A DNA stretch of 17,161 nucleotides from Kofleriaceae bacterium (GCA_965215005.1 CBDCCZ010000050.1:1-17161), one strand, 5' to 3'. Positions 1 to 17,161 are shown, counted from the first letter of the stretch. Numbers and translations are program-made. The notes: a model not told the origin generated them from the letters alone.

Positions 1-1
1 G

Positions 2-1312
2 CACGCCGCAGCGCATCCAGAGACGCCTGTCTCCCTCCCCATCGAAACACATCTCGGCTATTGGACGACGCAGCTACGCGGCGTGGAGCCGCTGCAGCTC
101 CCGACCGACTTCCCGCGGCCCAAGCGCGCTTCGGACGAAGCGGGCGCCGTGCCGGTGCGCATTCCCGCGGAGCTGAGCCAACGGGTGGCATCCTTCGCGC
201 GCGAGGAAGGGACCACTCCCTACGTGGTGTGGCTGTCGCTCTATGGTGCGCTCCTCGGTCGGCTCGGCCGCCAAGACGACCTCACCATTGGCAGCCCGGT
301 GGCCAATCGGCGCGACCCCAAGCTGGAAGGACTCATCGGCTTCTTTGTCAACACGGTGGTGCAGCGCCTCAACCTGAGCGGCCGGCCCTCGCTGCGCGAG
401 CTGGTGCGCCGCACGCACGAGACGGCGCTCCAAACGCAGGAGCATCAGGACGCCCCGTTCGAGCAAGTCGTGCAGGCGCTGGATGTCCCGCGCGACCTGT
501 CGTCGACGCCGCTCTTCCAAGCGATGCTCGCGTATCAGAGTGCACAAGGCGGTGAGCGCCTCGACGTCGGTGAGGTCACGTTCGAAGCGCTGCCTTCCGA
601 GCCCTCCGCGCAGTTCGACCTGAGCCTATCGCTGAGCGAATCGACCGCGTCGACCACCGGCGCGCTGGTGTACCGCTCCACGCTCTTCTCTCAGCAGACG
701 ATGGAGCGGCTGGTAGCGCACCTAGTGCGCCTGACGCGAGAGGCACTGTCCGCACCGTCGGAGCCGATGGTGGCACTGTCGCTGCTAGATGGCGACGAGC
801 GCACGCGCGTGTTGGAGCGCTTCCAGGGCGAGGCCGCAGCGGCCGATGTTCCGGATGTGCTGACCGCATTCCGCGCGCAGGCGAAGCAGCACCCGGATGC
901 GGAGGCGCTACGCTTCGAAGGCACTTCACTTACCTACGCGGAGCTCGACCGCCGCACCGACGCACTGGCGGCAGCGTTGCACGCACGAGGCATCGGACCG
1001 GGTAGTCGTGTGGGTCTGAAGCTCGAGCGGAGCCTGAGCCTGGTGGAAGCGGTGTGGGGCGTGTGGAAAGCGGGCGCGGCTTATGTGCCGCTGGACCCGT
1101 CGCTGCCGGCGGAGCGGCTGTCGTTCATGATGGAAGACGCGGCGCCACAGCTGGTGCTCACCGACGACGACGAGCACTCGGACGCATCGCTCTCGTTCAC
1201 TCAGCTGATGGAAGAGGGCGCTCGCGTCGGACCGCTCTGCGCCCAAGGTCTCGCTGACACCCACCACGCCGGCCTACCTCATCTACACGTCGGGCTCGAC
1301 GGGCAGACCTAA
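2..1312 (+). CDS. NRPS fragment 1: end of DCL C, half C domain, N-terminal part of A1; true frame lost at ~1217
   Basis: ORF 83..1312 extends upstream to 2 ([21 protein letters not shown]...); [32 protein letters not shown] motifs; the tail after MEE is out of frame. Confidence 0.85.
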   Translation, partial: HAAAHPETPVSLPIETHLGYWTTQLRGVEPLQLPTDFPRPKRASDEAGAVPVRIPAELSQRVASFAREEGTTPYVVWLSLYGALLGRLGRQDDLTIGSPVANRRDPKLEGLIGFFVNTVVQRLNLSGRPSLRELVRRTHETALQTQEHQDAPFEQVVQALDVPRDLSSTPLFQAMLAYQSAQGGERLDVGEVTFEALPSEPSAQFDLSLSLSESTASTTGALVYRSTLFSQQTMERLVAHLVRLTREALSAPSEPMVALSLLDGDERTRVLERFQGEAAAADVPDVLTAFRAQAKQHPDAEALRFEGTSLTYAELDRRTDALAAALHARGIGPGSRVGLKLERSLSLVEAVWGVWKAGAAYVPLDPSLPAERLSFMMEDAAPQLVLTDDDEHSDASLSFTQLMEEGARVGPLCAQGLADTHHAGLPHLHVGLDGQT

Positions 1313-4300
1313 AGGCGTGGTGTCACACCACGGTGGCTTGGCCAACCGCCTGCAGTGGATGCAGCAGGCGTATCCTGTTGGCATCGGCGATCGAGTGGCG
1401 CACAAAACGCCGTTCAGCTTCGATGTATCGGTATGGGAGCTAAGCTGGCCGCTGCTGACCGGAGCGACGCTGAGCGTGGCGCCTCCGGAGCTGCACCGCG
1501 ATGCGGCGGGGCTGCAGTCGTGGCTCGAAGCGGAAGAAGTGCGTGTGGTGCACTTCGTTCCGTCGATGCTGCGGGCGTGGCTGGAGACTGGCGCGCGCGC
1601 GGGCGCGCTACGCACGGTGGTGTGCAGTGGAGAAGCCTTGCCGGGCGCAGTCGCCGAGAGCTTCGCGCGGGCGCTGCCGACCGTGGCTCTCGAGAACCTC
1701 TACGGCCCCACCGAAGCCGGCCATCGACGTCACGCGCGCCAGCGTCGAAGCGGGTGCACCGATCACCTTGGGGCGACCGGTCCAAGGCACTCAGACCTAT
1801 GTGCTCGACGCCGCGCTGAAGCTCTGCGGCATCGGCGCGGTAGGCGAGCTGTACCTCGCCGGGATGCAGCTGGCGCACGGCTACCACGGTCGCTCCGCGC
1901 TGACGGCTGAGCGCTTCGTGCCTAATCCTTTCGGCGCGCCGGGCAGCCGGATGTACCGCACCGGGGACCTGGCGCGGTGGACCGAAAACGGCGAGCTGGA
2001 GTTTCTCGGCCGCGCAGACTTTCAGGTCAAAGTGCGCGGCTATCGCATCGAGCTCGGCGAGATCGAGTCGCAGCTACAGGCGCAGCCGTCGGTGCAGCAA
2101 GCGGTGGTCGTGGCACGGGACGAACGGCTGCATGCCTATGTCGTCACGGCCGACGCGACTGCGGACGCCACATCTCTACGTGCGGCGCTGAGCGCGGTCC
2201 TACCGGAGTACATGGTGCCGGCGACGTTCACGGCGCTGCCCTCGCTGCCGCTGACTCCGTCAGGCAAGCTGGACCGCCGCGCGCTGCCCGAGCCCGAGGT
2301 AGAGAAGGCGGTGTACGAGCCGCCGCGCGGCGAAGTGGAGCAAACGCTGGCAGCGTTGTGGCAGGAGCTGCTCGGTGTAGAGCGAGTCGGTCGCGGCGAC
2401 GACTTCTTCGCGCTCGGTGGCCATTCGCTCTTGGCCACGCGGCTGGTGGCGCGGGTAAGCTCGGAGCTCGGGCAGTCGCTGTCGCTACGCGACGTCTTCG
2501 AGCGGCCGCAGCTGGGCGCGATGGCGGAAGCGATTGGCGGGCAAGCGGCGACGCCGCCGCTCACGCGAGTGGAGCGCGAAGGCCCTCTTTTGGCGAGCTA
2601 CGCGCAAGAGCGGCAGTGGGTGCTGCACCAGCTGTCGCCCGAGTCTGCGGCGTACCACATGCCGGTGCTGTTGGAGGTGACCGGGACGCTGGATGACGCG
2701 GCGCTGGAACAGGCATTGAAGCAGCTGACCGAGCGGCACGAGGTGCTGCGCACGCGGCTCTACGAAGTGGACGGGGAGCTGCGGCCAGAGGTGCTGCCCG
2801 AGGCGCCGCTGCGGCTCGAGCGCTTCGCAATGACGCGCGCCGAAGCCGAGGCCCACGCCGGAGCGTGGATGCGCCGCCCATTCGCGCTCTCCGAAGGCGA
2901 GGTGCTGCGCGCAGCGCTCTACGAGCTCACCGATACCGATTCGCAGCTTCTGGCGTTCTGCATGCATCACATCGCATCGGACGGGGTATCCATGCAGGTG
3001 CTGGTGCGCGAGGTAGGCGCGCTTTTGAGTGGCGAGACGCTCGAGCCGTTGCCGGTGCAGTACGGCGACTACGCCGCGTGGCAGCGGCAATGGATGGAAG
3101 CGGGCGGAGAGCTTGAGCGGCAGCTCGGCTACTGGACGACGCAGCTCCAAGGCGTGGAGCCGCTGCAGCTTCCAACCGACTTCCCGCGGCCCAAGCGCGC
3201 TTCGGACGAAGCGGGCTCCGTGCCGGTGCGCATTCCCGCGGAGCTGAGCCAGCGCGTGCACACCTTTGCGCGCCAAGAGGGCACCACGCCCTACGTGGTG
3301 TGGCTGTCACTCTATGGCGCGCTCCTCGGTCGGCTCGGCCGCCAAGACGACCTCACCATTGGCAGCCCGGTGGCCAATCGCCGCGACCCCAAGCTGGAAG
3401 GACTCATCGGCTTCTTCGTCAACACGGTGGTGCAGCGGCTCGACCTGAGCGGCCGACCGTCGCTGCGGGAGCTGGTGCGCCGTACCCACGAGACCGCGCT
3501 CCAAACGCAGGAGCATCAGGACGCACCGTTCGAGCAAGTCGTGCAAGCGCTGGACGTCCCGCGCGACCTGTCGTCGACGCCGCTGTTCCAAGCGATGCTC
3601 GCGTATCAGAGTGACCAGCGCGCCGAGGGTGGTGAGCGCCTCGACCTTGGTGAGGTCACGTTGGAGGCGTTGCCTTCCGAGCCCTCCGCGCAGTTCGACC
3701 TGAACCTATCGCTGAGCGAATCGCCCGAGTCGACCTCTGGCGCGCTGGTGTACCGCTCCACGCTCTTCTCTCAGCAGACGATGGAGCGGCTGGTAGCGCA
3801 CCTAGTGCGCCTGACGCGAGAGGCACTGTCCGCACCGTCGGAGCCGATGGTGGCACTGTCGCTGCTAGATGGCGACGAGCGCACGCGCGTGTTGGAGCGC
3901 TTCCAGGGCGAGGCCGCAGCGGCCGATGTTCCGGATGTGCTGACCGCATTCCGCGCCCAGGCGAAGCAGCACCCGGATGCGGAGGCGCTACGCTTTGAAG
4001 GCACGTCACTTACCTACGCGGAGCTCGACCGCCGCACCGACGCGCTGGCGGCAGCGTTGCACGCACGAGGCATCGGACCGGGTAGTCGCGTGGGTCTGAA
4101 GCTCGAGCGGAGCCTGAGCCTGGTGGAAGCGGTGTGGGGCGTGTGGAAAGCCGGCGCAGCCTACATTCCCCTTGACCCTTCGCTGCCGGCCGAACGGCTA
4201 GCGTTCATGAGGGAGGACTCGGCGCCGGAGCTGTTGCTCACCGACGACGACGACGACTCAAATGCCTCGCTCTCGTTCGCTCGGCTGATGGAAGAGGCGC

Positions 4301-7300
4301 TCGCGTCGAACGCCTCCGCGCCCGAGGTATCGCTTGCGCCCACGACGCCGGCCTACCTCATCTACACGTCGGGCTCGACGGGCAGACCCAAAGGCGTGGT
4401 GTCGCACCACGGAGGCTTGGCCAACCGCCTGCAGTGGATGCAGCAGGCGTACACCATAGGCATCGGCGACCGAGTGGCGCACAAGACGCCGTTCAGCTTC
4501 GACGTATCTGTATGGGAGCTGAGCTGGCCGCTACTGACCGGAGCGACGCTGAGCGTGGCGCCACCGGAGCTGCACCGCGATGCGACGGCGCTGCAGTCGT
4601 GGCTCGAAGCGGAAGAAGTGCGCGTGGTGCACTTCGTTCCGTCGATGCTGCGGGCGTGGCTGGAGACCGGCGCGCGCGCGGGCGTACTACGCACGGTAGT
4701 GTGCAGTGGCGAAGCCTTGCCCGACGCGGTCGCCGAAAGCTTCGCGCGGGCTCTGCCGACCGTGGCTCTCGAGAATCCTCTACGGCCCCACCGAAGCGGC
4801 CATCGACGTCACGCGCGCCAGCGTCGAAGCGGGGTGCGCCGGTCACCTTGGGGCGACCGGTCCAAGGCACTCAGACCTATGTGCTCGATGCCGCGCTGAA
4901 GCCCTGCGGCATTGGCGCGGTGGGCGAGCTCTACCTCGGTGGCGTGCAGCTGGCGCACGGCTACCACGGGCGGTCGGAGCTCACTGCGGAGCGCTTCGTG
5001 CCCAATCCTTTCGGCGCGCCGGGCAGCCGGATGTACCGCACCGGGGACCTGGCGCGGTGGACCGAGAGCGGCGAGCTGGAGTTTCTCGGCCGCGCCGACT
5101 TTCAGGTCAAAGTGCGCGGCTATCGCATCGAGCTCGGCGAGATCGAGTCGCAGCTGGAGGCGCAGCCCTCGGTGCAGCAAGCGGTGGTCGTCGCGCGGGA
5201 CGAACGGCTGCATGCCTATGTAGTCACGAAAGATGCAACTGCGGACGCCGCGTCTCTACACGCGCCGCGCTGAGCGCGGTTCTGCCGGAGTACATGGTGC
5301 CGGCGACGTACACGTCGCTCGAGTCCTTGCCGCTGACTCCGTCAGGCAAGCTGGACCGCCGCGCGCTTCCCGAGCCGGAGGTGGAGCAAGCGGATTACCA
5401 GCCGCCGCGTGACGAGATTGAACAGACGCTGGCGACGGTGTGGCAGAAGCTGCTCGGAGTGGCGCGGGTAGGGCGGCAAGACGACTTCTTCGCGCTGGGT
5501 GGCGACTCCATTGTGGCTCTGCAGCTCTTGGCGCGGCTGTCGTCGGCGGGAGTGCATCTGTCGCTGCGTGATGTGTTCGAGCATCCGGTGCTGTCAGCGC
5601 TGGCGAAGCAGCGGCGCGAGGCAGTGATCGCGGAGCAGGGTTTGGTCGAGGGCGAGCTGGCGCCGTTCCCCGTTCATCAAGAGTTCTTGGCGGAGGCGGC
5701 CGGTCGCGAGCATTTCAACCAAGCGTTTGTCCTATCCCTTGAGTCGCGCGTGAGCTTCGAGCGGGTGGAGGGGGCGGTAAAGCGGTTGGTGCGGCATCAC
5801 GACGCGCTGCGCCTTCGCTGGGAAACCACGGCAGACGGGGAGTGGCGCGGTGTATTCGGCCCGGCGGACGGCGCGGTGATGCTGGAGCTCGAAGACGTGT
5901 CGACGCTGCCCGCCGAAGCGCAGACCGCGCGCATCGAGTCGTTGTGTGCGGCCGCGCAGGCCCGCCTGAGTCTCGCGGGACCGATGGGCCGCGCCGTCTA
6001 TTTCGACACCGGCGAGCGGCCACGCTTGCTGCTGGCCTTCCACCATTTGGTGGTCGATGGCGTGAGTTGGCGCGTGCTGCTGCCGCAGCTGCAGGCGCTG
6101 TTGCTGGACCCGCAAGCGACGTTGCCGGCCAAGACCACGTCGGTGCAGCGGTGGGGCCAAGCGCTGGTGGAGGCCGCGCCGTGCCATGAAGGGCAGCTGC
6201 CGCGATGGACCGAGGCGGTGGAGCACGCGCGCGCGCAAAACCTCGGCCTCGGTCCCCAGCGGATCGCCGCTGAGCGCGTGACGCACAGCTTTACGCTGAG
6301 CGCGGCGACGACAACGGCGCTTCTGAGCCAGGCGTTGTCGCCGTATCGGTTGACCACCGAAGAGGTGTTGCTGGCAGCTTTGGCGCAAAGCTTTTCCGAG
6401 CAAGACGTGGTGGTGGTGACGCTCGAAGGTCACGGCCGCGAGGCAGAGGCCATCGACGCCAGCGTAGATCTATCGCGAACGATGGGCTGGTTCACCACGA
6501 TGTATCCGGTGGTGCTGCCGGTGCATCGCGACGCGGAGGCGCAGCTGGTGGCGGCCAAGGAGCAGCTGCGTGCAGTGCCGGACAAAGGCATCGGCTTTGG
6601 AGCACTGCAGTCGAGCCACCGGTCGCTACGGTATGCGCCCGACATGGTGTTCAACTACCTGGGTCAGACGCGAGGCGCGCTGAGCGCGGACGGTCTGGCA
6701 CTGGCACCGGAGAGCGCGGGTCCCTCGATGTCGGCGGAGCGCCCGCGCGAAGCGGTGACGGTGACAGCCATCGTCGTCGGCGAAGGGCGGATGCAGGTCT
6801 CGGTGGAGGTGGCGGCGCCGCAGGCTTCGCGAGGCGCTGAGCTCGCGAAAGCCATGGAGGCTTCGCTGCATCAGCTGCTGGCTCACCTGCAGCAGCCGGC
6901 GGTCGGTCGGTGGACTCCGAGCGACTTCTCGCTGGTCCCGGAGCTGACCGAGCGGGACCTGTCGGCGCTGCTGCAAGCGCACCCGCATCTGGAAGACATC
7001 TGGCCCTTGTCGCCGCTACAGCGAGGGCTGTACGTGCACGCGCGCCGCGACCGAAGTGCGTATGTGACACAGATGCGCCTCGATGTGGAGGGGGCGGACG
7101 AGGCGGCCTTGGAAGCGGGCCTGAGCCGGCTGCGCCAGGGCATGGAGCAGTCGGTGGAGGCACACAGCGCGGTCCGTGTGGCGATGCACACGCTCCGCGA
7201 CGGCACCGCGGTGCAGGTGGTTGTCCCCGCTCCACTGCCGTGGGTCGAAGAATACGCGTCCGCGGAGGCCGAGGACGAAGCGTGGCTGACGGAGGATCGC

Positions 7301-10300
7301 GCGCGCGGCTTCGTGCTGGAGGAGGCGCCGCTGATGCGCGTGAGCGTGCGCCGTTTGGGCGATGGTCGCGCGCAGCTGTTGTGGACCACGCACCACTTGG
7401 TGATGGATGGGTGGTCGCTGGCGCGATTCTTCCGCGACGTGGCGCAGGCGATGGCTGGGCAGCCAATCGTAAACGCGCCGAGCTACCGCGCGCACTTGCG
7501 GTCCATCGCCTCGGGACCGACGGCCGCGGAGGCGCGGAGCTATTTTGCGGAGTCGCTCGCGGGCGCTCGCAGCACGCGCCTGCTCCAGGCACCGACCGTG
7601 GGGGAAACGCCGCACGTCGTGGAGCACACGGTCGAGGTGCCGCTGGCGCCTCTGGCGCAGTGGGCGGCCTCGGCGCACACGACGGTCGCCAATCTGGTGG
7701 CGACGGCCTACGCGGCCACGCTGGGAAGCTTCGCGCAGACCCGTGACGTAGTGTTCGGCCAGACGACGTCGGGCCGCTCGCCCGACCGACCCGAGAGTCA
7801 CGACACGGTAGGGCTGTTCATCAATACGCTTCCGGTGCGCCTGCGGTGGGAAGGCGGCGAGTCTCCCCGCGAGCTGGCCGCGCGCATGCAGTCGGATTTC
7901 TTGGAGCGGCAGCGCCACGAGCAGACGCCGCTAGTAGACGCCCTCGGCGCCGCAGGTCTACGCGACTTCGACGCGCTGTACGTCTTCGAAAACTATCCGG
8001 TGGAGAAGGCGGTGCAAACGCAGCCGAGCGATGCGGGGCTCACGCTACAAATGCGGAGCTCACGCGAGCCCACGCACTATAGCGTCGCATTGGTTGCTTC
8101 CACCTCGGAGGACCGGCTGCAGCTGCGGCTGGGCGTCGATGAACGGCGGGCGTCGGAATACTGGAGCGCGGCGTTTCTGACGGCCTTGACCCAGTGGCTA
8201 GCGCACGCCGCAGCGCATCCAGAGACGCCTGTCTCCCTCCCCATCGAAACACATCTCGGCTATTGGACGACGCAGCTACGCGGCGTGGAGCCGCTGCAGC
8301 TCCCGACCGACTTCCCGCGGCCCAAGCGCGCTTCGGACGAAGCGGGCGCCGTGCCGGTGCGCATTCCCGCGGAGCTGAGCCAACGGGTGGCATCCTTCGC
8401 GCGCGAGGAAGGGACCACTCCCTACGTGGTGTGGCTGTCGCTCTATGGTGCGCTCCTCGGTCGGCTCGGCCGCCAAGACGACCTCACCATTGGCAGCCCG
8501 GTGGCCAATCGGCGCGACCCCAAGCTGGAAGGACTCATCGGCTTCTTTGTCAACACGGTGGTGCAGCGCCTCAACCTGAGCGGCCGGCCCTCGCTGCGCG
8601 AGCTGGTGCGCCGTACCCACGAGACGGCGCTCCAAACGCAGGAGCATCAGGACGCACCGTTCGAGCAAGTCGTGCAGGCGCTCGATGTCCCACGCGACCT
8701 GTCGTCGACGCCGCTGTTCCAAGCGATGCTCGCGTATCAGAGTGCACAAGGCGGTGAGCGACTCGACCTCGGTGAGGTCACGTTCGAAGCGCTGCCTTCC
8801 GAGCCCTCCGCGCAGTTCGACCTGAACCTATCGCTGAGCGAATCGCCCGAGTCGACCACCGGCGCGTTGGTGTACCGCTCCACGCTCTTCTCTCAGCAGA
8901 CGATGGAGCGGCTGGTAGCGCACCTAGTGCGCCTGACGCGAGAGGCACTGTCCGCACCGTCGGAGCCGATGGTGGCACTGTCGCTGCTAGATGGCGACGA
9001 GCGCACGCGCGTGTTGGAGCGCTTCCAGGGCGAGGCCGCAGCGGCCGATGTTCCGGATGTGCTGACCGCATTCCGCGCGCAGGCGAAGCAGCACCCGGAT
9101 GCGGAGGCGCTACGCTTCGAAGGCACTTCACTTACCTACGCGGAGCTCGACCGCCGCACCGACGCACTGGCGGCAGCGTTGCACGCACGAGGCATCGGAC
9201 CGGGTAGTCGTGTGGGTCTGAAGCTCGAGCGGAGCCTGAGCCTGGTGGAAGCGGTGTGGGGCGTGTGGAAAGCGGGCGCGGCTTATGTGCCGCTGGACCC
9301 GTCGCTGCCGGCGGAGCGGCTGTCGTTCATGATGGAAGACGCGGCGCCACAGCTGGTGCTCACCGACGACGACGAGCACTCGGACGCATCGCTCTCGTTC
9401 ACTCAGCTGATGGAAGAGGGCGCTCGCGTCGGACCGCTCTGCGCCCAAGGTCTCGCTGACACCCACCACGCCGGCCTACCTCATCTACACGTCGGGCTCG
9501 ACGGGCAGACCTAAAGGCGTGGTGTCACACCACGGTGGCTTGGCCAACCGCCTGCAGTGGATGCAGCAGGCGTATCCTGTTGGCATCGGCGATCGAGTGG
9601 CGCACAAAACGCCGTTCAGCTTCGATGTATCGGTATGGGAGCTAAGCTGGCCGCTGCTGACCGGAGCGACGCTGAGCGTGGCGCCTCCGGAGCTGCACCG
9701 CGATGCGGCGGGGCTGCAGTCGTGGCTCGAAGCGGAAGAAGTGCGTGTGGTGCACTTCGTTCCGTCGATGCTGCGGGCGTGGCTGGAGACTGGCGCGCGC
9801 GCGGGCGCGCTACGCACGGTGGTGTGCAGTGGAGAAGCCTTGCCGGGCGCAGTCGCCGAGAGCTTCGCGCGGGCGCTGCCGACCGTGGCTCTCGAGAACC
9901 TCTACGGCCCCACCGAAGCGGCCATCGACGTCACGCGCGCCAGCGTCGAAGCGGGTGCACCGATCACCTTGGGGCGACCGGTCCAAGGCACTCAGACCTA
10001 TGTGCTCGACGCCGCGCTGAAGCTCTGCGGCATCGGCGCGGTAGGCGAGCTGTACCTCGCCGGGATGCAGCTGGCGCACGGCTACCACGGTCGCTCCGCG
10101 CTGACGGCTGAGCGCTTCGTGCCTAATCCTTTCGGCGCGCCGGGCAGCCGGATGTACCGCACCGGGGACCTGGCGCGGTGGACCGAAAACGGCGAGCTGG
10201 AGTTTCTCGGCCGCGCAGACTTTCAGGTCAAAGTGCGCGGCTATCGCATCGAGCTCGGCGAGATCGAGTCGCAGCTACAGGCGCAGCCGTCGGTGCAGCA

Positions 10301-13300
10301 AGCGGTGGTCGTGGCACGGGACGAACGGCTGCATGCCTATGTCGTCACGGCCGACGCGACTGCGGACGCCACATCTCTACGTGCGGCGCTGAGCGCGGTC
10401 CTACCGGAGTACATGGTGCCGGCGACGTTCACGGCGCTGCCCTCGCTGCCGCTGACTCCGTCAGGCAAGCTGGACCGCCGCGCGCTGCCCGAGCCCGAGG
10501 TAGAGAAGGCGGTGTACGAGCCGCCGCGCGGCGAAGTGGAGCAAACGCTGGCAGCGTTGTGGCAGGAGCTGCTCGGTGTAGAGCGAGTCGGTCGCGGCGA
10601 CGACTTCTTCGCGCTCGGTGGCCATTCGCTCTTGGCCACGCGGCTGGTGGCGCGGGTAAGCTCGGAGCTCGGGCAGTCGCTGTCGCTACGCGACGTCTTC
10701 GAGCGGCCGCAGCTGGGCGCGATGGCGGAAGCGATTGGCGGGCAAGCGGCGACGCCGCCGCTCACGCGAGTGGAGCGCGAAGGCCCTCTTTTGGCGAGCT
10801 ACGCGCAAGAGCGGCAGTGGGTGCTGCACCAGCTGTCGCCCGAGTCTGCGGCGTACCACATGCCGGTGCTGTTGGAGGTGACCGGGACGCTGGATGACGC
10901 GGCGCTGGAACAGGCATTGAAGCAGCTGACCGAGCGGCACGAGGTGCTGCGCACGCGGCTCTACGAAGTGGACGGGGAGCTGCGGCCAGAGGTGCTGCCC
11001 GAGGCGCCGCTGCGGCTCGAGCGCTTCGCAATGACGCGCGCCGAAGCCGAGGCCCACGCCGGAGCGTGGATGCGCCGCCCATTCGCGCTCTCCGTAGGCG
11101 AGGTGCTGCGCGCAGCGCTCTACGAGCTCACCGATACCGATTCGCAGCTTCTGGCGTTCTGCATGCATCACATCGCATCGGACGGGGTATCCATGCAGGT
11201 GCTGGTGCGCGAGGTAGGCGCGCTTTTGAGTGGCGAGACGCTCGAGCCGTTGCCGGTGCAGTACGGCGACTACGCCGCGTGGCAGCGGCAATGGATGGAA
11301 GCGGGCGGAGAGCTTGAGCGGCAGCTCGGCTACTGGACGACGCAGCTCCAAGGCGTGGAGCCGCTGCAGCTTCCAACCGACTTCCCGCGGCCCAAGCGCG
11401 CTTCGGACGAAGCGGGCTCCGTGCCGGTGCGCATTCCCGCGGACCTGAGCCAGCGCGTGCACACCTTTGCGCGCCAAGAGGGCACCACGCCCTACGTGGT
11501 GTGGCTGTCACTCTATGGCGCGCTCCTCGGTCGGCTCGGCCGCCAAGACGACCTCACCATTGGCAGCCCGGTGGCCAATCGCCGCGACCCCAAGCTGGAA
11601 GGACTCATCGGCTTCTTCGTCAACACGGTGGTGCAGCGGCTCGACCTGAGCGGCCGACCGTCGCTGCGGGAGCTGGTGCGCCGTACCCACGAGACCGCGC
11701 TCCAAACGCAGGAGCATCAGGACGCACCGTTCGAGCAAGTCGTGCAAGCGCTGGACGTCCCGCGCGACCTGTCGTCGACGCCGCTGTTCCAAGCGATGCT
11801 CGCGTATCAGAGTGACCAGCGCGCCGAGGGTGGTGAGCGCCTCGACCTTGGTGAGGTCACGTTGGAGGCGTTGCCTTCCGAGCCCTCCGCGCAGTTCGAC
11901 CTGAACCTATCGCTGAGCGAATCGCCCGAGTCGACCTCTGGCGCGCTGGTGTACCGCTCCACGCTCTTCTCTCAGCAGACGATGGAGCGGCTGGTAGCGC
12001 ACCTAGTGCGCCTGACGCGAGAGGCACTGTCCGCACCGTCGGAGCCGATGGTGGCACTGTCGCTGCTAGATGGCGACGAGCGCACGCGCGTGTTGGAGCG
12101 CTTCCAGGGCGAGGCCGCAGCGGCCGATGTTCCGGATGTGCTGACCGCATTCCGCGCCCAGGCGAAGCAGCACCCGGATGCGGAGGCGCTACGCTTTGAA
12201 GGCACGTCACTTACCTACGCGGAGCTCGACCGCCGCACCGACGCGCTGGCGGCAGCGTTGCACGCACGAGGCATCGGACCGGGTAGTCGCGTGGGTCTGA
12301 AGCTCGAGCGGAGCCTGAGCCTGGTGGAAGCGGTGTGGGGCGTGTGGAAAGCCGGCGCAGCCTACATTCCCCTTGACCCTTCGCTGCCGGCCGAACGGCT
12401 AGCGTTCATGAGGGAGGACTCGGCGCCGGAGCTGTTGCTCACCGACGACGACGACGACTCAAATGCCTCGCTCTCGTTCGCTCGGCTGATGGAAGAGGCG
12501 CTCGCGTCGAACGCCTCCGCGCCCGAGGTATCGCTTGCGCCCACGACGCCGGCCTACCTCATCTACACGTCGGGCTCGACGGGCAGACCCAAAGGCGTGG
12601 TGTCGCACCACGGAGGCTTGGCCAACCGCCTGCAGTGGATGCAGCAGGCGTACACCATAGGCATCGGCGACCGAGTGGCGCACAAGACGCCGTTCAGCTT
12701 CGACGTATCTGTATGGGAGCTGAGCTGGCCGCTACTGACCGGAGCGACGCTGAGCGTGGCGCCACCGGAGCTGCACCGCGATGCGACGGCGCTGCAGTCG
12801 TGGCTCGAAGCGGAAGAAGTGCGCGTGGTGCACTTCGTTCCGTCGATGCTGCGGGCGTGGCTGGAGACCGGCGCGCGCGCGGGCGTACTACGCACGGTAG
12901 TGTGCAGTGGCGAAGCCTTGCCCGACGCGGTCGCCGAAAGCTTCGCGCGGGCTCTGCCGACCGTGGCTCGCGAGAATCTCTACGGCCCCACCGAAGCGGC
13001 CATCGACGTCACGCGCGCCAGCGTCGAAGCGGGTGCGCCGGTCACCTTGGGGCGACCGGTCCAAGGCACTCAGACCTATGTGCTCGATGCCGCGCTGAAG
13101 CCCTGCGGCATTGGCGCGGTGGGCGAGCTCTACCTCGGTGGCGTGCAGCTGGCGCACGGCTACCACGGGCGGTCGGAGCTCACTGCGGCGCGCTTCGTAC
13201 CCAATCCTTTCGGCGCGCCGTGCAGCCGAATGTACCGCACCGGGGACCTGGCGCGGTGGACCGAGAGCGGCGAGCTGGAGTTTCTCGGCCGTGCCGACTT

Positions 13301-16300
13301 TCAGGTCAAAGTGCGCGGCTATCGCATCGAGCTCGGCGAGATCGAATCGCAGCTACAGGAGCAGCCCTCGGTGCAGCAAGCAGTGGTCGTCGCGCGGGAC
13401 GAACGGCTGCATGCCTATGTAGTCACGAAAGATGCAACTGCGGACGCCGCGTCTCTGCGCACCGCGCTGAGCGCGGTTCTGCCGGAGTACATGGTGCCGG
13501 CGACGTACACGTCGCTCGAGTCCTTGCCGCTGACTCCGTCAGGCAAGCTGGACCGCCGCGCGCTTCCCGAGCCGGAGGTGGAGCAAGCGGATTACCAGCC
13601 GCCGCGTGACGAGATTGAACAGACGCTGGCGACGGTGTGGCAGAAGCTGCTCGGAGTGGCGCGGGTAGGGCGGCAAGACGACTTCTTCGCGCTGGGTGGC
13701 GACTCCATTGTGGCTCTGCAGCTCTTGGCGCGGCTGTCGTCGGCGGGAGTGCATCTGTCGCTGCGTGATGTGTTCGAGCATCCGGTGCTGTCAGCGCTGG
13801 CGAAGCAGCGGCGCGAGGCAGTGATCGCGGAGCAGGGTTTGGTCGAGGGCGAGCTGGCGCCGTTCCCCGTTCATCAAGAGTTCTTGGCGGAGGCGGCCGG
13901 TCGCGAGCATTTCAACCAAGCGTTTGTCCTATCCCTTGAGTCGCGCGTGAGCTTCGAGCGGGTGGAGGGGGCGGTAAAGCGGTTGGTGCGGCATCACGAC
14001 GCGCTGCGCCTTCGCTGGGAAACCACGGCAGACGGGGAGTGGCGCGGTGTATTCGGCCCGGCGGACGGCGCGGTGATGCTGGAGCTCGAAGACGTGTCGA
14101 CGCTGCCCGCCGAAGCGCAGACCGCGCGCATCGAGTCGTTGTGTGCGGCCGCGCAGGCCCGCCTGAGTCTCGCGGGACCGATGGGCCGCGCCGTCTATTT
14201 CGACACCGGCGAGCGGCCACGCTTGCTGCTGGCCTTCCACCATTTGGTGGTCGATGGCGTGAGTTGGCGCGTGCTGCTGCCGCAGCTGCAGGCGCTGTTG
14301 CTGGACCCGCAAGCGACGTTGCCGGCCAAGACCACGTCGGTGCAGCGGTGGGGCCAAGCGCTGGTGGAGGCCGCGCCGTGCCATGAAGGGCAGCTGCCGC
14401 GATGGACCGAGGCGGTGGAGCACGCGCGCGCGCAAAACCTCGGCCTCGGTCCCCAGCGGATCGCCGCTGAGCGCGTGACGCACAGCTTTACGCTGAGCGC
14501 GGCGACGACAACGGCGCTTCTGAGCCAGGCGTTGTCGCCGTATCGGTTGACCACCGAAGAGGTGTTGCTGGCAGCTTTGGCGCAAAGCTTTTCCGAGCAA
14601 GACGTGGTGGTGGTGACGCTCGAAGGTCACGGCCGCGAGGCAGAGGCCATCGACGCCAGCGTAGATCTATCGCGAACGATGGGCTGGTTCACCACGATGT
14701 ATCCGGTGGTGCTGCCGGTGCATCGCGACGCGGAGGCGCAGCTGGTGGCGGCCAAGGAGCAGCTGCGTGCAGTGCCGGACAAAGGCATCGGCTTTGGAGC
14801 ACTGCAGTCGAGCCACCGGTCGCTACGGTATGCGCCCGACATGGTGTTCAACTACCTGGGTCAGACGCGAGGCGCGCTGAGCGCGGACGGTCTGGCACTG
14901 GCACCGGAGAGCGCGGGGTCCCTCGATGTCGGCGGAGCGCCCGCGCGAAGCGGTGACGGTGACAGCCATCGTCGTCGGCGAAGGGCGGATGCAGGTCTCG
15001 GTGGAGGTGGCGGCGCCGCAGGCTTCGCGAGGCGCTGAGCTCGCGAAAAGCCATGGAGGCTTCGCTGCATCAGCTGCTGGCTCACCTGCAGCAGCCGGCG
15101 GTCGGTCGGTGGACTCCGAGCGACTTCTCGCTGGTCCCGGAGCTGACCGAGCGGGACCTGTCGGCGCTGCTGCAAGCGCACCCGCATCTGGAAGACATCT
15201 GGCCCTTGTCGCCGCTACAGCGAGGGCTGTACGTGCACGCGCGCCGCGACCGAAGTGCGTATGTGACACAGATGCGCCTCGATGTGGAGGGGGCGGACGA
15301 GGCGGCCTTGGAAGCGGGCCTGAGCCGGCTGCGCCAGGGCATGGAGCAGTCGGTGGAGGCACACAGCGCGGTCCGTGTGGCGATGCACACGCTCCGCGAC
15401 GGCACCGCGGTGCAGGTGGTTGTCCCCGCTCCACTGCCGTGGGTCGAAGAATACGCGTCCGCGGAGGCCGAGGACGAAGCGTGGCTGACGGAGATCGCGC
15501 GCGCGGCTTCGTGCTGGAGGAGGCGCCGCTGATGCGCGTGAGCGTGCGCCGTTTGGGCGATGGTCGCGCGCAGCTGTTGTGGACCACGCACCACTTGGTG
15601 ATGGATGGGTGGTCGCTGGCGCGATTCTTCCGCGACGTGGCGCAGGCGATGGCTGGGCAGCCAATCGTAAACGCGCCGAGCTACCGCGCGCACTTGCGGT
15701 CCATCGCCTCGGGACCGACGGCCGCGGAGGCGCGGAGCTATTTTGCGGAGTCGCTCGCGGGCGCTCGCAGCACGCGCCTGCTCCAGGCACCGACCGTGGG
15801 GGAAACGCCGCACGTCGTGGAGCACACGGTCGAGGTGCCGCTGGCGCCTCTGGCGCAGTGGGCGGCCTCGGGCGCACACGACGGTCGCCAATCTGGTGGC
15901 GACGGCCTACGCGGCCACGCTGGGAAGCTTCGCGCAGACCCGTGACGTAGTGTTCGGCCAGACGACGTCGGGCCGCTCGCCCGACCGACCCGAGAGTCAC
16001 GACACGGTAGGGCTGTTCATCAATACGCTTCCGGTGCGCCTGCGGTGGGAAGGCGGCGAGTCTCCCCGCGAGCTGGCCGCGCGCATGCAGTCGGATTTCT
16101 TGGAGCGGCAGCGCCACGAGCAGACGCCGCTAGTAGACGCCCTCGGCGCCGCAGGTCTACGCGACTTCGACGCGCTGTACGTCTTCGAAAACTATCCGGT
16201 GGAGAAGGCGGTGCAAACGCAGCCGAGCGATGCGGGGCTCACGCTACAAATGCGGAGCTCACGCGAGCCCACGCACTATAGCGTCGCATTGGTTGCTTCC

Positions 16301-17159
16301 ACCTCGGGAGGACCGGCTGCAGCTGCGGCTGGGCGTCGATGAACGGCGGGCGTCGGAATACTGGAGCGCGGCGTTTCTGACGGCCTTGACCCAGTGGCTA
16401 GCGCACGCCGCAGCGCATCCAGAGACGCCTGTCTCCCTCCCCATCGAAACACATCTCGGCTATTGGACGACGCAGCTACGCGGCGTGGAGCCGCTGCAGC
16501 TCCCGACCGACTTCCCGCGGCCCAAGCGCGCTTCGGACGAAGCGGGCGCCGTGCCGGTGCGCATTCCCGCGGAGCTGAGCCAACGGGTGGCATCCTTCGC
16601 GCGCGAGGAAGGGACCACTCCCTACGTGGTGTGGCTGTCGCTCTATGGTGCGCTCCTCGGTCGGCTCGGCCGCCAAGACGACCTCACCATTGGCAGCCCG
16701 GTGGCCAATCGGCGCGACCCCAAGCTGGAAGGACTCATCGGCTTCTTTGTCAACACGGTGGTGCAGCGCCTCAACCTGAGCGGCCGGCCCTCGCTGCGCG
16801 AGCTGGTGCGCCGCACGCACGAGACGGCGCTCCAAACGCAGGAGCATCAGGACGCCCCGTTCGAGCAAGTCGTGCAGGCGCTGGATGTCCCGCGCGACCT
16901 GTCGTCGACGCCGCTCTTCCAAGCGATGCTCGCGTATCAGAGTGCACAAGGCGGTGAGCGCCTCGACGTCGGTGAGGTCACGTTCGAAGCGCTGCCTTCC
17001 GAGCCCTCCGCGCAGTTCGACCTGAGCCTATCGCTGAGCGAATCGACCGCGTCGACCACCGGCGCGCTGGTGTACCGCTCCACGCTCTTCTCTCAGCAGA
17101 CGATGGAGCGGCTGGTAGCGCACCTAGTGCGCCTGACGCGAGAGGCACTGTCCGCACCG
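2..17159 (+). CDS. Giant multimodular NRPS, internal fragment open at both window ends; reconstructed across 11 small indels. Architecture: (halfC-A-T-C-A-T-E-C)x2-halfC
   Basis: Continuous NRPS motifs once frames are joined: A-domain cores ([68 protein letters not shown]), T motifs (FFALGGHSL / FFALGGDSI), C motifs (HHIASDG, HHLVMDG), E motifs (HHLVVDG, EGHGRE, RTMGWF, FNYLGQ, TPSDF). Each copy-specific indel is absent from the sister copy. Confidence 0.93.
53..787 (+). other. Half condensation domain (C-terminal lobe of LCL type, no HHxxxDG), copy 1
   Basis: LGYWTTQL...LPTDFPRP...IGSPVANR...[10 protein letters not shown]...HQDAPFE; paralogous to 3124-3867. Confidence 0.85.
850..2295 (+). 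other. Adenylation domain A1, predicted serine
   Basis: Core motifs A1-A10; code DVWHVSLIDK read from FDVSVW, VVHFVP, TVVCSG, NLYG, AAID, SGK; boundaries approximate. Confidence 0.88.
1317..1910 (+). CDS. NRPS fragment 2: A1 substrate-binding core (in-frame part ~1218-1717)
   Basis: NRLQWMQ...FSFDVSVWE...HFVPSML...CSGEAL...NLYGPTEA; the tail after PTEA is out of frame because of an extra C at 1717-1718. Confidence 0.8.
   Translation: MVSHHGGLANRLQWMQQAYPVGIGDRVAHKTPFSFDVSVWELSWPLLTGATLSVAPPELHRDAAGLQSWLEAEEVRVVHFVPSMLRAWLETGARAGALRTVVCSGEALPGAVAESFARALPTVALENLYGPTEAGHRRHARQRRSGCTDHLGATGPRHSDLCARRRAEALRHRRGRRAVPRRDAAGARLPRSLRADG
1501..4899 (+). CDS. NRPS fragment 3: A1 C-terminal part, T, LCL C, most of A2 (in-frame part ~1720-4776)
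   Basis: 1132 aa ORF with [29 protein letters not shown]; both ends are out-of-frame extensions. Confidence 0.85.
2314..2540 (+). other. Thiolation (PCP) domain T1, GGHSL type; Ppant Ser codon at 2425
   Basis: [16 protein letters not shown]. Confidence 0.92.
2584..3867 (+). other. Condensation domain, LCL type
   Basis: [25 protein letters not shown] (2965-2985), [33 protein letters not shown]; follows a module without E. Confidence 0.9.
3930..5376 (+). other. Adenylation domain A2, predicted serine
   Basis: Same motifs and same DVWHVSLIDK code as A1; boundaries approximate. Confidence 0.88.
4434..5273 (+). CDS. NRPS fragment 4: A2 motifs A6-A8 (in-frame part ~4833-5258)
   Basis: GAPVTLGRP...GELYLGG...YRTGDL...[20 protein letters not shown] in the second half of the ORF. 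Confidence 0.75.
4706..9514 (+). CDS. NRPS fragment 5: end of A2, T, E, DCL C, half C, N-terminal part of next A1 (in-frame part ~5264-9418)
   Basis: 1602 aa ORF with [40 protein letters not shown]. Confidence 0.88.
5396..5610 (+). other. Thiolation domain T2, GGDSI type (epimerase-associated); Ser codon at 5507
   Basis: [16 protein letters not shown] directly upstream of an E domain. Confidence 0.92.
5640..6935 (+). other. Epimerization (E) domain
   Basis: [21 protein letters not shown] (6041), LEGHGRE (6425), [33 protein letters not shown]. Confidence 0.93.
6990..8245 (+). other. Condensation domain, DCL type, complete
   Basis: [32 protein letters not shown] (7391), [28 protein letters not shown]; follows E. 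Confidence 0.9.
8255..8989 (+). other. Half condensation domain (LCL C-terminal lobe), copy 2
   Basis: In frame directly after the complete DCL domain: [36 protein letters not shown]. Confidence 0.87.
9052..10496 (+). other. Adenylation domain A1', predicted serine
   Basis: Copy of A1; code DVWHVSLIDK. Confidence 0.88.
9519..15038 (+). CDS. NRPS fragment 6: A1 core, T, LCL C, A2, T, most of E (in-frame part ~9420-14916)
   Basis: 1839 aa ORF, uninterrupted across the positions that are frameshifted in copy 1. Confidence 0.9.
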   Translation: MVSHHGGLANRLQWMQQAYPVGIGDRVAHKTPFSFDVSVWELSWPLLTGATLSVAPPELHRDAAGLQSWLEAEEVRVVHFVPSMLRAWLETGARAGALRTVVCSGEALPGAVAESFARALPTVALENLYGPTEAAIDVTRASVEAGAPITLGRPVQGTQTYVLDAALKLCGIGAVGELYLAGMQLAHGYHGRSALTAERFVPNPFGAPGSRMYRTGDLARWTENGELEFLGRADFQVKVRGYRIELGEIESQLQAQPSVQQAVVVARDERLHAYVVTADATADATSLRAALSAVLPEYMVPATFTALPSLPLTPSGKLDRRALPEPEVEKAVYEPPRGEVEQTLAALWQELLGVERVGRGDDFFALGGHSLLATRLVARVSSELGQSLSLRDVFERPQLGAMAEAIGGQAATPPLTRVEREGPLLASYAQERQWVLHQLSPESAAYHMPVLLEVTGTLDDAALEQALKQLTERHEVLRTRLYEVDGELRPEVLPEAPLRLERFAMTRAEAEAHAGAWMRRPFALSVGEVLRAALYELTDTDSQLLAFCMHHIASDGVSMQVLVREVGALLSGETLEPLPVQYGDYAAWQRQWMEAGGELERQLGYWTTQLQGVEPLQLPTDFPRPKRASDEAGSVPVRIPADLSQRVHTFARQEGTTPYVVWLSLYGALLGRLGRQDDLTIGSPVANRRDPKLEGLIGFFVNTVVQRLDLSGRPSLRELVRRTHETALQTQEHQDAPFEQVVQALDVPRDLSSTPLFQAMLAYQSDQRAEGGERLDLGEVTLEALPSEPSAQFDLNLSLSESPESTSGALVYRSTLFSQQTMERLVAHLVRLTREALSAPSEPMVALSLLDGDERTRVLERFQGEAAAADVPDVLTAFRAQAKQHPDAEALRFEGTSLTYAELDRRTDALAAALHARGIGPGSRVGLKLERSLSLVEAVWGVWKAGAAYIPLDPSLPAERLAFMREDSAPELLLTDDDDDSNASLSFARLMEEALASNASAPEVSLAPTTPAYLIYTSGSTGRPKGVVSHHGGLANRLQWMQQAYTIGIGDRVAHKTPFSFDVSVWELSWPLLTGATLSVAPPELHRDATALQSWLEAEEVRVVHFVPSMLRAWLETGARAGVLRTVVCSGEALPDAVAESFARALPTVARENLYGPTEAAIDVTRASVEAGAPVTLGRPVQGTQTYVLDAALKPCGIGAVGELYLGGVQLAHGYHGRSELTAARFVPNPFGAPCSRMYRTGDLARWTESGELEFLGRADFQVKVRGYRIELGEIESQLQEQPSVQQAVVVARDERLHAYVVTKDATADAASLRTALSAVLPEYMVPATYTSLESLPLTPSGKLDRRALPEPEVEQADYQPPRDEIEQTLATVWQKLLGVARVGRQDDFFALGGDSIVALQLLARLSSAGVHLSLRDVFEHPVLSALAKQRREAVIAEQGLVEGELAPFPVHQEFLAEAAGREHFNQAFVLSLESRVSFERVEGAVKRLVRHHDALRLRWETTADGEWRGVFGPADGAVMLELEDVSTLPAEAQTARIESLCAAAQARLSLAGPMGRAVYFDTGERPRLLLAFHHLVVDGVSWRVLLPQLQALLLDPQATLPAKTTSVQRWGQALVEAAPCHEGQLPRWTEAVEHARAQNLGLGPQRIAAERVTHSFTLSAATTTALLSQALSPYRLTTEEVLLAALAQSFSEQDVVVVTLEGHGREAEAIDASVDLSRTMGWFTTMYPVVLPVHRDAEAQLVAAKEQLRAVPDKGIGFGALQSSHRSLRYAPDMVFNYLGQTRGALSADGLALAPESAGSLDVGGAPARSGDGDSHRRRRRADAGLGGGGGAAGFARR
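10515..10741 (+). other. Thiolation domain T1' (GGHSL)
   Basis: [12 protein letters not shown]. Confidence 0.92.
10785..12068 (+). other. Condensation domain LCL'
   Basis: [10 protein letters not shown] at 11166; copy of 2584-3867. Confidence 0.9.
12131..13573 (+). other. Adenylation domain A2', predicted serine
   Basis: Uninterrupted A domain; code DVWHVSLIDK. Confidence 0.9.
13593..13807 (+). other. Thiolation domain T2' (GGDSI)
   Basis: [12 protein letters not shown]. Confidence 0.92.
13837..15134 (+). other. Epimerization domain E'
   Basis: [27 protein letters not shown]; two +1 indels near the C-terminus. Confidence 0.9.
14918..17159 (+). CDS. NRPS fragments 7-11: end of E, DCL C and half C of copy 2/3, broken by indels at ~15047, ~15493, ~15871, ~16307; runs off the window end
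   Basis: ORF-track pieces 14926..15945, 15053..15532, 15743..16342 and an open frame from 16308 together match the intact translation of 6720-8960. Confidence 0.82.
15189..16445 (+). other. Condensation domain DCL'
   Basis: [34 protein letters not shown]; three indels relative to copy 1. Confidence 0.87.
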
Positions 17160-17161
17160 TC
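16403..17161 (+). repeat. Tandem bimodule repeat, partial copy 3 (759 nt, appears identical to 1..759)
   Basis: Carries copy-1 alleles at all positions where copies 1 and 2 differ (e.g. cgcacgcac, gacgtcggt, ctgagccta, tcgaccgcg). Confidence 0.95.
16455..17161 (+). other. Half condensation domain (LCL C-terminal lobe), copy 3, cut by window end
   Basis: Same junction and sequence as 53-759. Confidence 0.85.

Follow-up and report, generated by a model that had tools for sequence, protein, structure and literature searches.

A complete DCL-type condensation (C) domain, fused in frame to an isolated C-terminal lobe of an LCL-type C domain with an adenylation (A) domain behind it, is encoded by a contig of 17,161 nucleotides from a Kofleriaceae bacterium (GCA_965215005.1, CBDCCZ010000050.1:1-17161). 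This contig, referred to as C50, was analyzed over its whole length, which is termed the window. It encodes part of a nonribosomal peptide synthetase (NRPS) that also contains thiolation carrier (T) and epimerization (E) domains. The feature is rare, and by analogy with known half-domains it is plausible that the orphan lobe serves as a passive prop. In the reading preferred here, to which a probability of roughly 0.55 is given, the lobe is a young scar of illegitimate recombination among near-identical Ser modules and acts as a passive prop for the A domain that follows (A1), in the manner of the truncated C* domains found at the N termini of other NRPSs.

Architecture of the DCL Domain and the Orphan Lobe

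The domains on which this finding rests were delimited with the Pfam profile PF00668, with hidden Markov models (HMMs) built for this work, and by DNA comparison:

6992..8236, plus strand: complete DCL-type condensation domain with the motif HHLVMDG (PF00668 profile 2-442 of 456; own DCL-type HMM 2-449 of 451)
8237..8254, plus strand: junction, the DCL tail ending in PVSLPIETH fused straight to the start of the lobe (blastn, DNA comparison, Logan contig)
8255..9031, plus strand: orphan acceptor-side C-terminal LCL lobe, variant beta (259 codons, LGYW to FQG)
53..829, plus strand: orphan lobe copy 1, variant alpha, with only 17 DCL residues ahead of it at the contig start
16455..17161, plus strand: orphan lobe copy 3, truncated where the contig stops and 100% identical to copy 1
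9071..10500, plus strand: A1 adenylation domain with a Ser-type pocket (AMP-binding; an extra G in a G-run near 9421-9423 breaks the frame)

The two-lobe fold of the DCL domain is complete by profile coverage, and the HHxxxDG motif is present in the translation as HHLVMDG. The domain starts at 6992, directly after an E domain (5702-6925), as expected for the DCL type. Its subtype was called with an HMM built from the homologues of this very domain; in other loci, matches to this HMM directly follow E matches where the same open reading frame (ORF) holds an E match. The DCL domain is followed in frame by a second PF00668 match at 8246-9004, which covers profile positions 192-452 only, and by AMP-binding from 9071. 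The same lobe-only match is observed at 41-802 and 16398-17159. With an E value of 1e-49 (Pfam), a chance match can be dismissed. The orphan lobe (8255-9031) contains neither an N-lobe nor the His motif HHxxxDG, retains the native C-A linker (lobe end at residue 1252 and A start at residue 1265 of the frame window:5270-9511), and aligns to approximately residues 192-455 of the solved C domains of Txo1 and Txo2. The frame is open from 4700 to 9514; it takes in the second carrier domain of the unit (T2), E, DCL, and the lobe without a break and reaches into A1.

An earlier note on this DNA, written from the sequence alone, had described this same order, a full DCL domain and then a lone LCL C-lobe before A, and had predicted that PF00668 would return one full match followed by one partial, C-terminal match, which is exactly the outcome obtained. 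The junctions had been placed at 53, 8255, and 16455, and the LGYW starts of the lobe are located at these three positions; that the junction is in frame is borne out at 8255 by the open frame from T2 into A1. The description of the differences between copies as mostly synonymous is also right, the two lobe variants being separated by 8 synonymous and 4 non-synonymous changes. The assignment of the modules to Ser likewise fits, in that both A domains carry DVWHVSLI at the presumed pocket positions. DVWHVSLI is a code listed for Ser (PMC3207962). From these codes and the domain order, the repeated unit of the contig would add L-Ser and then a Ser that is epimerized to D-Ser.

Support for the Junction

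The junction is real. One public run contains 76% of the sampled words from 7850-8650, and a Logan contig (618 nt, depth 6.1) matches 7676-8293 with 0 differences and 0 gaps, covering 579 bases of DCL and 39 bases of lobe. Neighboring Logan contigs in DCL have depths of 5.1-6.7, like the junction contig, and other Logan contigs match the lobe but have LCL N-lobe sequence to its left, which is what the LCL paralogues would be expected to give. Stretches without exact contig cover count neither way in this comparison. Since the run may be the source sample, this support does not depend on the assembler but does depend on the DNA. A low-depth Logan contig (depth 2.9, side 30) joins 8741 to 9257, skipping 515 bases; it was set aside, as it probably comes from a paralogue or another organism.

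The stretch is the whole of contig C50 within a 6.2-Mb, 62-contig assembly rated 92.8% complete. By self-comparison, it consists of nothing but 2.09 tandem copies of an 8202-bp unit; 1-8961 and 8203-17161 are 99.45% identical with 10 gaps (self blastn), and the opening 759 bases are identical to the final 759 (1-759 = 16403-17161). A contig of repeat only, with equal ends, resembles an assembler loop or a collapsed path, and the true number of 8.2-kb units, and with it that of Ser/D-Ser module pairs, may differ. That the junction is an artefact of a chimeric read or of a mis-join via the C-lobe/A repeat, and is absent from the genome, is nevertheless very improbable. The repeat-only contig, its identical 759-bp ends, its many indels, the occurrence of the sequence in one public run only, and the failure of the protein database to return even the junction ORF of C50 itself would all fit such an error. 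A mis-join within a repeat, however, cannot create the boundary of that repeat, the reading frame continues across the junction, which coincides with domain boundaries, and a structurally equivalent junction exists in another genome, G014. Misassembly, the outcome that the earlier note said would undo its claim, is contradicted by the independent k-mer contig, which crosses the junction exactly and at the depth seen in the flanking unique DCL.

Rarity of the Layout

The layout was surveyed with HMMs built from homologues, with the C50 stretch as the positive control. In 240 NRPS proteins, the 684 complete LCL or DCL ends are followed by A (658), by T (22), or by a second full C domain (4), and never by a lone lobe; the largest gap between a C end and an A start in these proteins is 69 residues, with a median of 10. 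The corresponding gap in C50 is 269 residues. All 62 complete C ends in 56 other loci are followed by A, with a largest gap of 27 residues, and five further loci that were read separately are canonical. With a lone lobe after C in 0 of 684 and 0 of 62 cases, the earlier description of the architecture as non-canonical stands. Matches without an N-lobe do occur among the 240 proteins, and all 15 lie at protein N termini, whereas the orphan lobe is internal. Full-length lobe-only starts are found in at least 5 non-partial proteins of the 240 (P0134, P0141, P0171, P0215, and P0042), and lobe-only starts at the N terminus are common in this survey.

Searches with the junction itself gave similar results. 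In the protein database, searched in three length classes, the best coverage by a single alignment is 66%, a weak negative since the ORF of the junction itself was also not returned. A set with one genome per species has the layout in none of its 52 loci, and 40 relatives yielded only a weak match in G014 (query 11-282). No internal C plus half-C layout was found in the literature, supplements not covered; described there are N-terminal truncated C domains, namely C* of ACVS and those of BicA, thermoactinoamide ThdA, and FmqC, as well as tandem full C domains.

Other unusual arrangements were seen in these surveys. Tandem pairs of complete C-type domains are present in 4 of the 240 proteins (P0146, P0168, P0004, and P0086), and locus L058 has the order E-DCL-T-LCL-partial DCL-A. 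On the reverse strand of L095 (G091:C120), a reduced lobe-only match (profile 178-285 and 398-453) lies ahead of the first A domain of its frame; this frame follows one that ends in an LCL match, and the two may form a split-module junction.

A Second Case in a Related Genome

In NRPS regions amounting to 388 kb from 11 related genomes, 51 of 52 C-domain ends are canonical, the exception being in G014, a genome of the same family and another genus. There, one open frame encodes an MbtH-like domain, a T domain, a full C domain with HHVVDDD, and a lobe of ~190 residues that matches profile positions 190-276 and 376-447; an A domain comes next, after a one-base slip in a G6 run. Residues 12-445 of the C50 junction piece span the G014 junction in a single BLASTP alignment (26% identity, E = 6e-15). 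The LCL domain of the next module on the same contig has a C-lobe to which the G014 lobe is 63% identical, with full identity over the last 45 lobe residues. Approximately 70 of ~260 lobe positions have been lost in several deletions, the region of the C5 core motif included.

A comparison of the G014 junction with 138 genomes of the family gave a match only to G014 itself. The DCL-type domains of the C50 genome and G014 share little similarity, and they are preceded by different domains, E in one genome and MbtH-T in the other. Given this weak similarity and the different contexts, the two events would appear to be independent. Together they suggest a life history, with a fresh, intact lobe in C50 and an eroding lobe in G014.

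At 1700-6513 of locus L075 (G014:C214), a gene opens with a reduced lobe-only domain followed by A-T, and the next gene encodes an MbtH-like domain fused to a carrier and to a C domain with HHVVDDD in place of HHxxxDG.

Origin of the Lobe

The repeated unit of C50 has the order [C-lobe]-A1-T1-LCL-A2-T2-E-DCL (Pfam and own HMMs). The only other NRPS contig of the assembly, C30 (8 kb), is canonical, T-LCL-A-T-LCL-A-T. Within the unit, 50-2421 is 91% identical to 3121-5503 (blastn), a repeat that spans the lobe and the entire A domain. At the DNA level, the lobe together with A1 shares 91% identity with the LCL lobe together with A2, and 92-92.6% with a canonical LCL-A module of C30. In P0001, a 90% relative from another assembly, lobe-type and A1-type sequence stands behind a complete LCL domain. 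The paralogy with LCL-A2 and C30 and the arrangement in P0001 indicate that the orphan lobe derives from an ordinary LCL-A(Ser) module.

The breakpoint lies within ~3 nt of 8252-8255 and has no extended microhomology (blastn boundary at 8252; five LCL paralogues compared). It is in frame and falls at domain boundaries. The left side of the junction is the end of a C domain, a site that Calcott et al. found to be permissive (PMC7486941), and the right side is the lobe boundary used by XUC exchange units (bioRxiv 10.1101/354670). The paralogy of the lobe starts at LGYW, profile position 192; the N-terminal lobe-only proteins of our own survey start at positions 186-202.

The high identity of A1 and A2 stops at the A-T junction (2421 and 5503), and T2-E-DCL (5504-8252) is the sole segment of the unit without a paralogue. 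These two observations allow two readings of the event. Along one route, a cassette of C-lobe plus A from a canonical LCL-A(Ser) module would have been pasted behind an intact DCL domain, at the end of its last helix. Along the other, a T(E)-E-DCL block would have replaced only the T(C) domain and the N-lobe of a resident LCL domain. Either route would yield E-DCL-[LCL C-lobe]-A-T, and the 8.2-kb two-module unit would then have been duplicated in tandem. This order of events is the one we infer from the comparisons above.

Age of the Lobe and Signs of Selection

The orphan lobe protein is ~95% identical to its sister LCL lobes. In pairwise comparisons, dN/dS is 0.11-0.16 between the orphan lobe and working LCL lobes, 0.15 between working lobes, and 0.175 for the A-domain N terminus. 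The lobe is a mosaic: at the 33 sites where LCL_1 deviates, nearly all of them upstream of codon 183, it has the state of the C30 module, and further on, where it is the C30 module that deviates, it agrees with LCL_1. Patches of 100% identity are observed in sliding windows, to A2 at 8946-9045 and to the C30 module at 9945-10244. Changes private to the lobe number 6 in common to both variants (5 synonymous) and 8 specific to variant alpha (4 synonymous), and several of these states occur in other paralogues as well. Because the lobe is a mosaic with few private changes, and because ongoing gene conversion or consensus mixing can bring in sequence that has already been under selection, its low dN/dS is not proof of constraint. 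Judged by these sequence relationships, the lobe is young and has almost no lineage of its own.

The use of dN/dS as a functional test was rejected as confounded by mosaicism and gene conversion. The substitutions between the unit copies are clustered, 12 in the lobe (412-665) and 13 at the end of A2 (4769-5264), and the ~7 kb between and around these clusters is otherwise identical, a pattern expected of gene-conversion tracts.

Frame Breaks

The two copies of the unit differ at 49 alignment columns, 10 of which are single-base gaps in short homopolymers. As a result of these gaps, A1, A2, E, and the second copy of DCL are frameshifted, the last at 15492, 15870, and 16306. The AMP-binding match of A1 is split over two frames, 9071-9391 (profile 1-107) and 9417-10088 (profile 151-384), and the break falls between the core motifs A2 and A3. 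In-frame versions at 7671 and 8106 are present in Logan contigs. Over the G-run of A1, the only Logan contig is a divergent paralogue (17 differences, 6 gaps), with no exact contig at that site. Elsewhere in the genome, rpoB has an intact frame of 1420 residues. Since the indels lie at homopolymer sites and, apart from the extra G of A1, which may be real, differ between copies, and since rpoB is intact, they look like unpolished consensus errors confined to the repeat contigs.

P0001 leaves the frame ~10 codons further on than A1 and into the same wrong frame. This shared loss of frame may be genuine, or it may mark a hot spot of systematic sequencing error.

Comparison with Known Half-Domains and Exchange Units

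The closest natural parallels are the C* domain of ACVS module 1 and the ADA domain of Lys2-type reductases (PMC7884236). Similar to the orphan lobe, they are isolated C-lobes that lack an N-lobe and HHxxxDG and stand directly before an A domain, and they are thought to support adenylation rather than condensation (PMC7884236). They differ in that they head a protein or a starter module and are old and diverged, with motifs C1-C5 missing, whereas the orphan lobe is internal, lies behind a complete DCL domain in the same polypeptide, has all C-lobe motifs, and retains its near-identity to its sisters.

The XUC and XU2.0 exchange units, C(Asub)-A-T-C(Dsub) (bioRxiv 10.1101/354670), share with the event in C50 a left boundary between N-lobe and C-lobe, and in both the lobe travels with its A domain so that the C-A interface remains native. 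In XUC, however, the resident acceptor lobe is replaced, whereas in C50 the resident C domain is whole, so that one and a half domains result. The two also differ at the right boundary, the paralogy in C50 ending at the A-T junction and not at the lobe linker of the next C domain.

The placement of T2-E-DCL where T(C) and LCL would stand, as on C30, resembles the replacements of T(C)-LCL by T(E)-E-DCL reported by Baunach et al. 2021 (PMC8097286). In those cases the whole LCL domain was replaced; in C50 an LCL-type C-lobe remains behind DCL, and the second of the two routes would be an imprecise form of such a replacement. Tandem full C-C didomains such as that of PfaA (PMC11731387) likewise have two condensation-fold units in a row, but both are complete, whereas the second unit in C50 is half a domain and is followed by A.

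Function of the Lobe and Alternative Explanations

In the preferred reading, that of a young scar and passive prop, the module would still work. As the orphan lobe has no N-lobe and no HHxxxDG, it cannot catalyze, and DCL would remain the sole catalyst of the D-Ser to L-Ser condensation. The lobe would still give A1 its native C-lobe surface and C-A linker, acting as the C*/ADA half-domains of starter modules may do, as a prop and spacer that is tolerated, not selected, and that would erode over time as in G014. Deletion of C* in ACVS abolishes formation of ACV (PMC7884236), and C(Asub)-A-T starter constructs have been made that work (bioRxiv 10.1101/354670).

Several observations weigh against this reading. 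The extra G in the G-runs at ~1222 and ~9423 breaks A1 in both copies, by comparison with A2, and could be real. The private changes of the lobe, 9 synonymous and 5 non-synonymous, include fewer non-synonymous ones than expected under neutrality (P = 0.004, binomial). Codon usage and GC content at third codon positions are the same in T2-E-DCL as in the rest of the unit, so that insertion of a cassette and integration of an E block are not separated. The assembly lacks both ends of the synthetase, and with them the wider context of the module; no thioesterase and no start module belonging to the system were detected in it. Finally, the one public run that holds the junction may be the source sample.

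The lobe might alternatively be a selected adaptor, a needed internal C*-type domain that would secure the activity and specificity of A1 through a native C-A platform and let a foreign E-DCL block plug in without a newly co-evolved C-A interface. We regard this as unlikely, although it draws on precedent: ACVS and Lys2-type enzymes need their C*/ADA lobes for adenylation or catalysis (PMC7884236), C-A interfaces tune A domains (bioRxiv 10.1101/2021.08.23.457306), and a C(Asub) placed ahead of an internal A domain rescued starter function (bioRxiv 10.1101/354670), even if C(Asub) alone impaired A3 of GxpS (bioRxiv 10.1101/2021.08.23.457306). The recurrence of full-length lobe-only starts in the 240 proteins and the duplication of the unit after the insertion, if that order is correct, would also suit an adaptor. 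The synonymous excess among the private changes would argue for selection on the lobe were gene conversion no confounder, but conversion with working LCL-A modules accounts for such an excess without selection on the lobe, which is too young for a constraint of its own to show. G014 provides a second case in cis, with the 45 lobe residues beside A identical to the neighboring LCL; yet the deletions there, C5 included, mean that an intact lobe is not maintained. The earlier note had offered both an adaptor and a tolerated scar. Of its interpretation, the non-canonical architecture holds, and the choice between adaptor and scar is undecided, with the evidence leaning to a young scar.

More doubtful still is a dead end, in which the junction is real but the module or the whole synthetase is inactive, at least the shared A1 frameshift is genuine, and the rearrangement is a recent one in a decaying or unselected cluster. 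The extra G shared by both copies of A1 fits such decay, as does the exit of P0001 from frame ~10 codons on in the same region of the A domain, but all other indels are copy-specific and in homopolymers, and Logan contigs back the in-frame versions wherever they provide cover. The assembly yielded no thioesterase, start module, or NRPS contig beyond C50 and C30, and the layout was found in no close relative. Against long decay, the units are 99.5% identical with no stop-creating substitutions, and the catalytic motifs read in translation are all intact.

A lobe swap, in which the orphan lobe would pair with the DCL N-lobe as the working pseudo-dimer and restore normal C-A-T geometry while the own C-lobe of DCL is looped out as a spare, is highly improbable: the orphan lobe is the one touching A1, a geometric argument only, and C-domain hybrids joined at the lobe linker can be functional, but the XUC experiments failed to combine half-domains of C/E type with those of C type (bioRxiv 10.1101/354670), and the own lobe of DCL is complete and covalently adjacent.

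If the preferred reading is correct, the lobes of C50 and G014 represent two time points in the formation and whittling of a scar. NRPS engineers dispute where modules can be cut, the candidate sites being the C-A linker, the lobe linker, and the core of the A domain. The locus is a natural event that used the C-A linker and the lobe linker together; the resident C domain was kept, and so was the acceptor lobe that came in. Should the module work, C and A can tolerate ~260 additional residues between them, which would loosen the assumed need for a rigid C-A platform and would suggest a simple route for dropping E-DCL blocks into LCL lines. A dead module, in contrast, would make the locus a mere snapshot of failed recombination in a poorly assembled repeat. 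A bolder proposal, put forward tentatively and with odds well below even, is that the orphan lobe works as an internal C* and that elongation persists when a C(Asub)-A unit follows any complete C domain, in this case E-DCL. Were this so, the locus would be natural proof that direct packing of a C domain on its A domain is dispensable, and it would supply an adaptor rule for NRPS engineering that recurs in at least two genomes of one family.

Other Features of the Contigs

The tandem units and their remaining domains are as follows:

1..8202, plus strand: tandem unit 1, lobe-A1-T1-LCL-A2-T2-E-DCL (99.45% identity, 10 gaps to the second copy)
8203..16404, plus strand: tandem unit 2, with E and DCL broken by indels at 14915, 15046, 15492, 15870, and 16306
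5423..5608, plus strand: T2 carrier domain of GGDSI type, D-Ser module (Pfam PP-binding, residues 52-113 of window:5270-9511)
5702..6925, plus strand: epimerization domain with HHLVVDG (PF00668 profile 23-449; own E-type HMM the best match, 1-456)
10542..10736, plus strand: T1 carrier domain of GGHSL type (Pfam PP-binding, residues 378-442 of window:9411-15035)
10791..12083, plus strand: complete LCL domain of the next module (PF00668 profile 6-452)
12150..13700, plus strand: A2 adenylation domain with a Ser-type pocket, copy 2, in frame (AMP-binding profile 1-384; PDB matches)

The C-lobe of the LCL domain at 10791..12083, from 11325 onward, is the paralogue of the orphan lobe within the unit. 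On the reverse strand of C30, at ~6400-6700, an NRPS gene boundary is visible. The upstream gene ends in A-T and an acidic, helical, docking-type tail, and the downstream gene begins 10 nt later with a basic N-terminal stretch followed by a full LCL domain.

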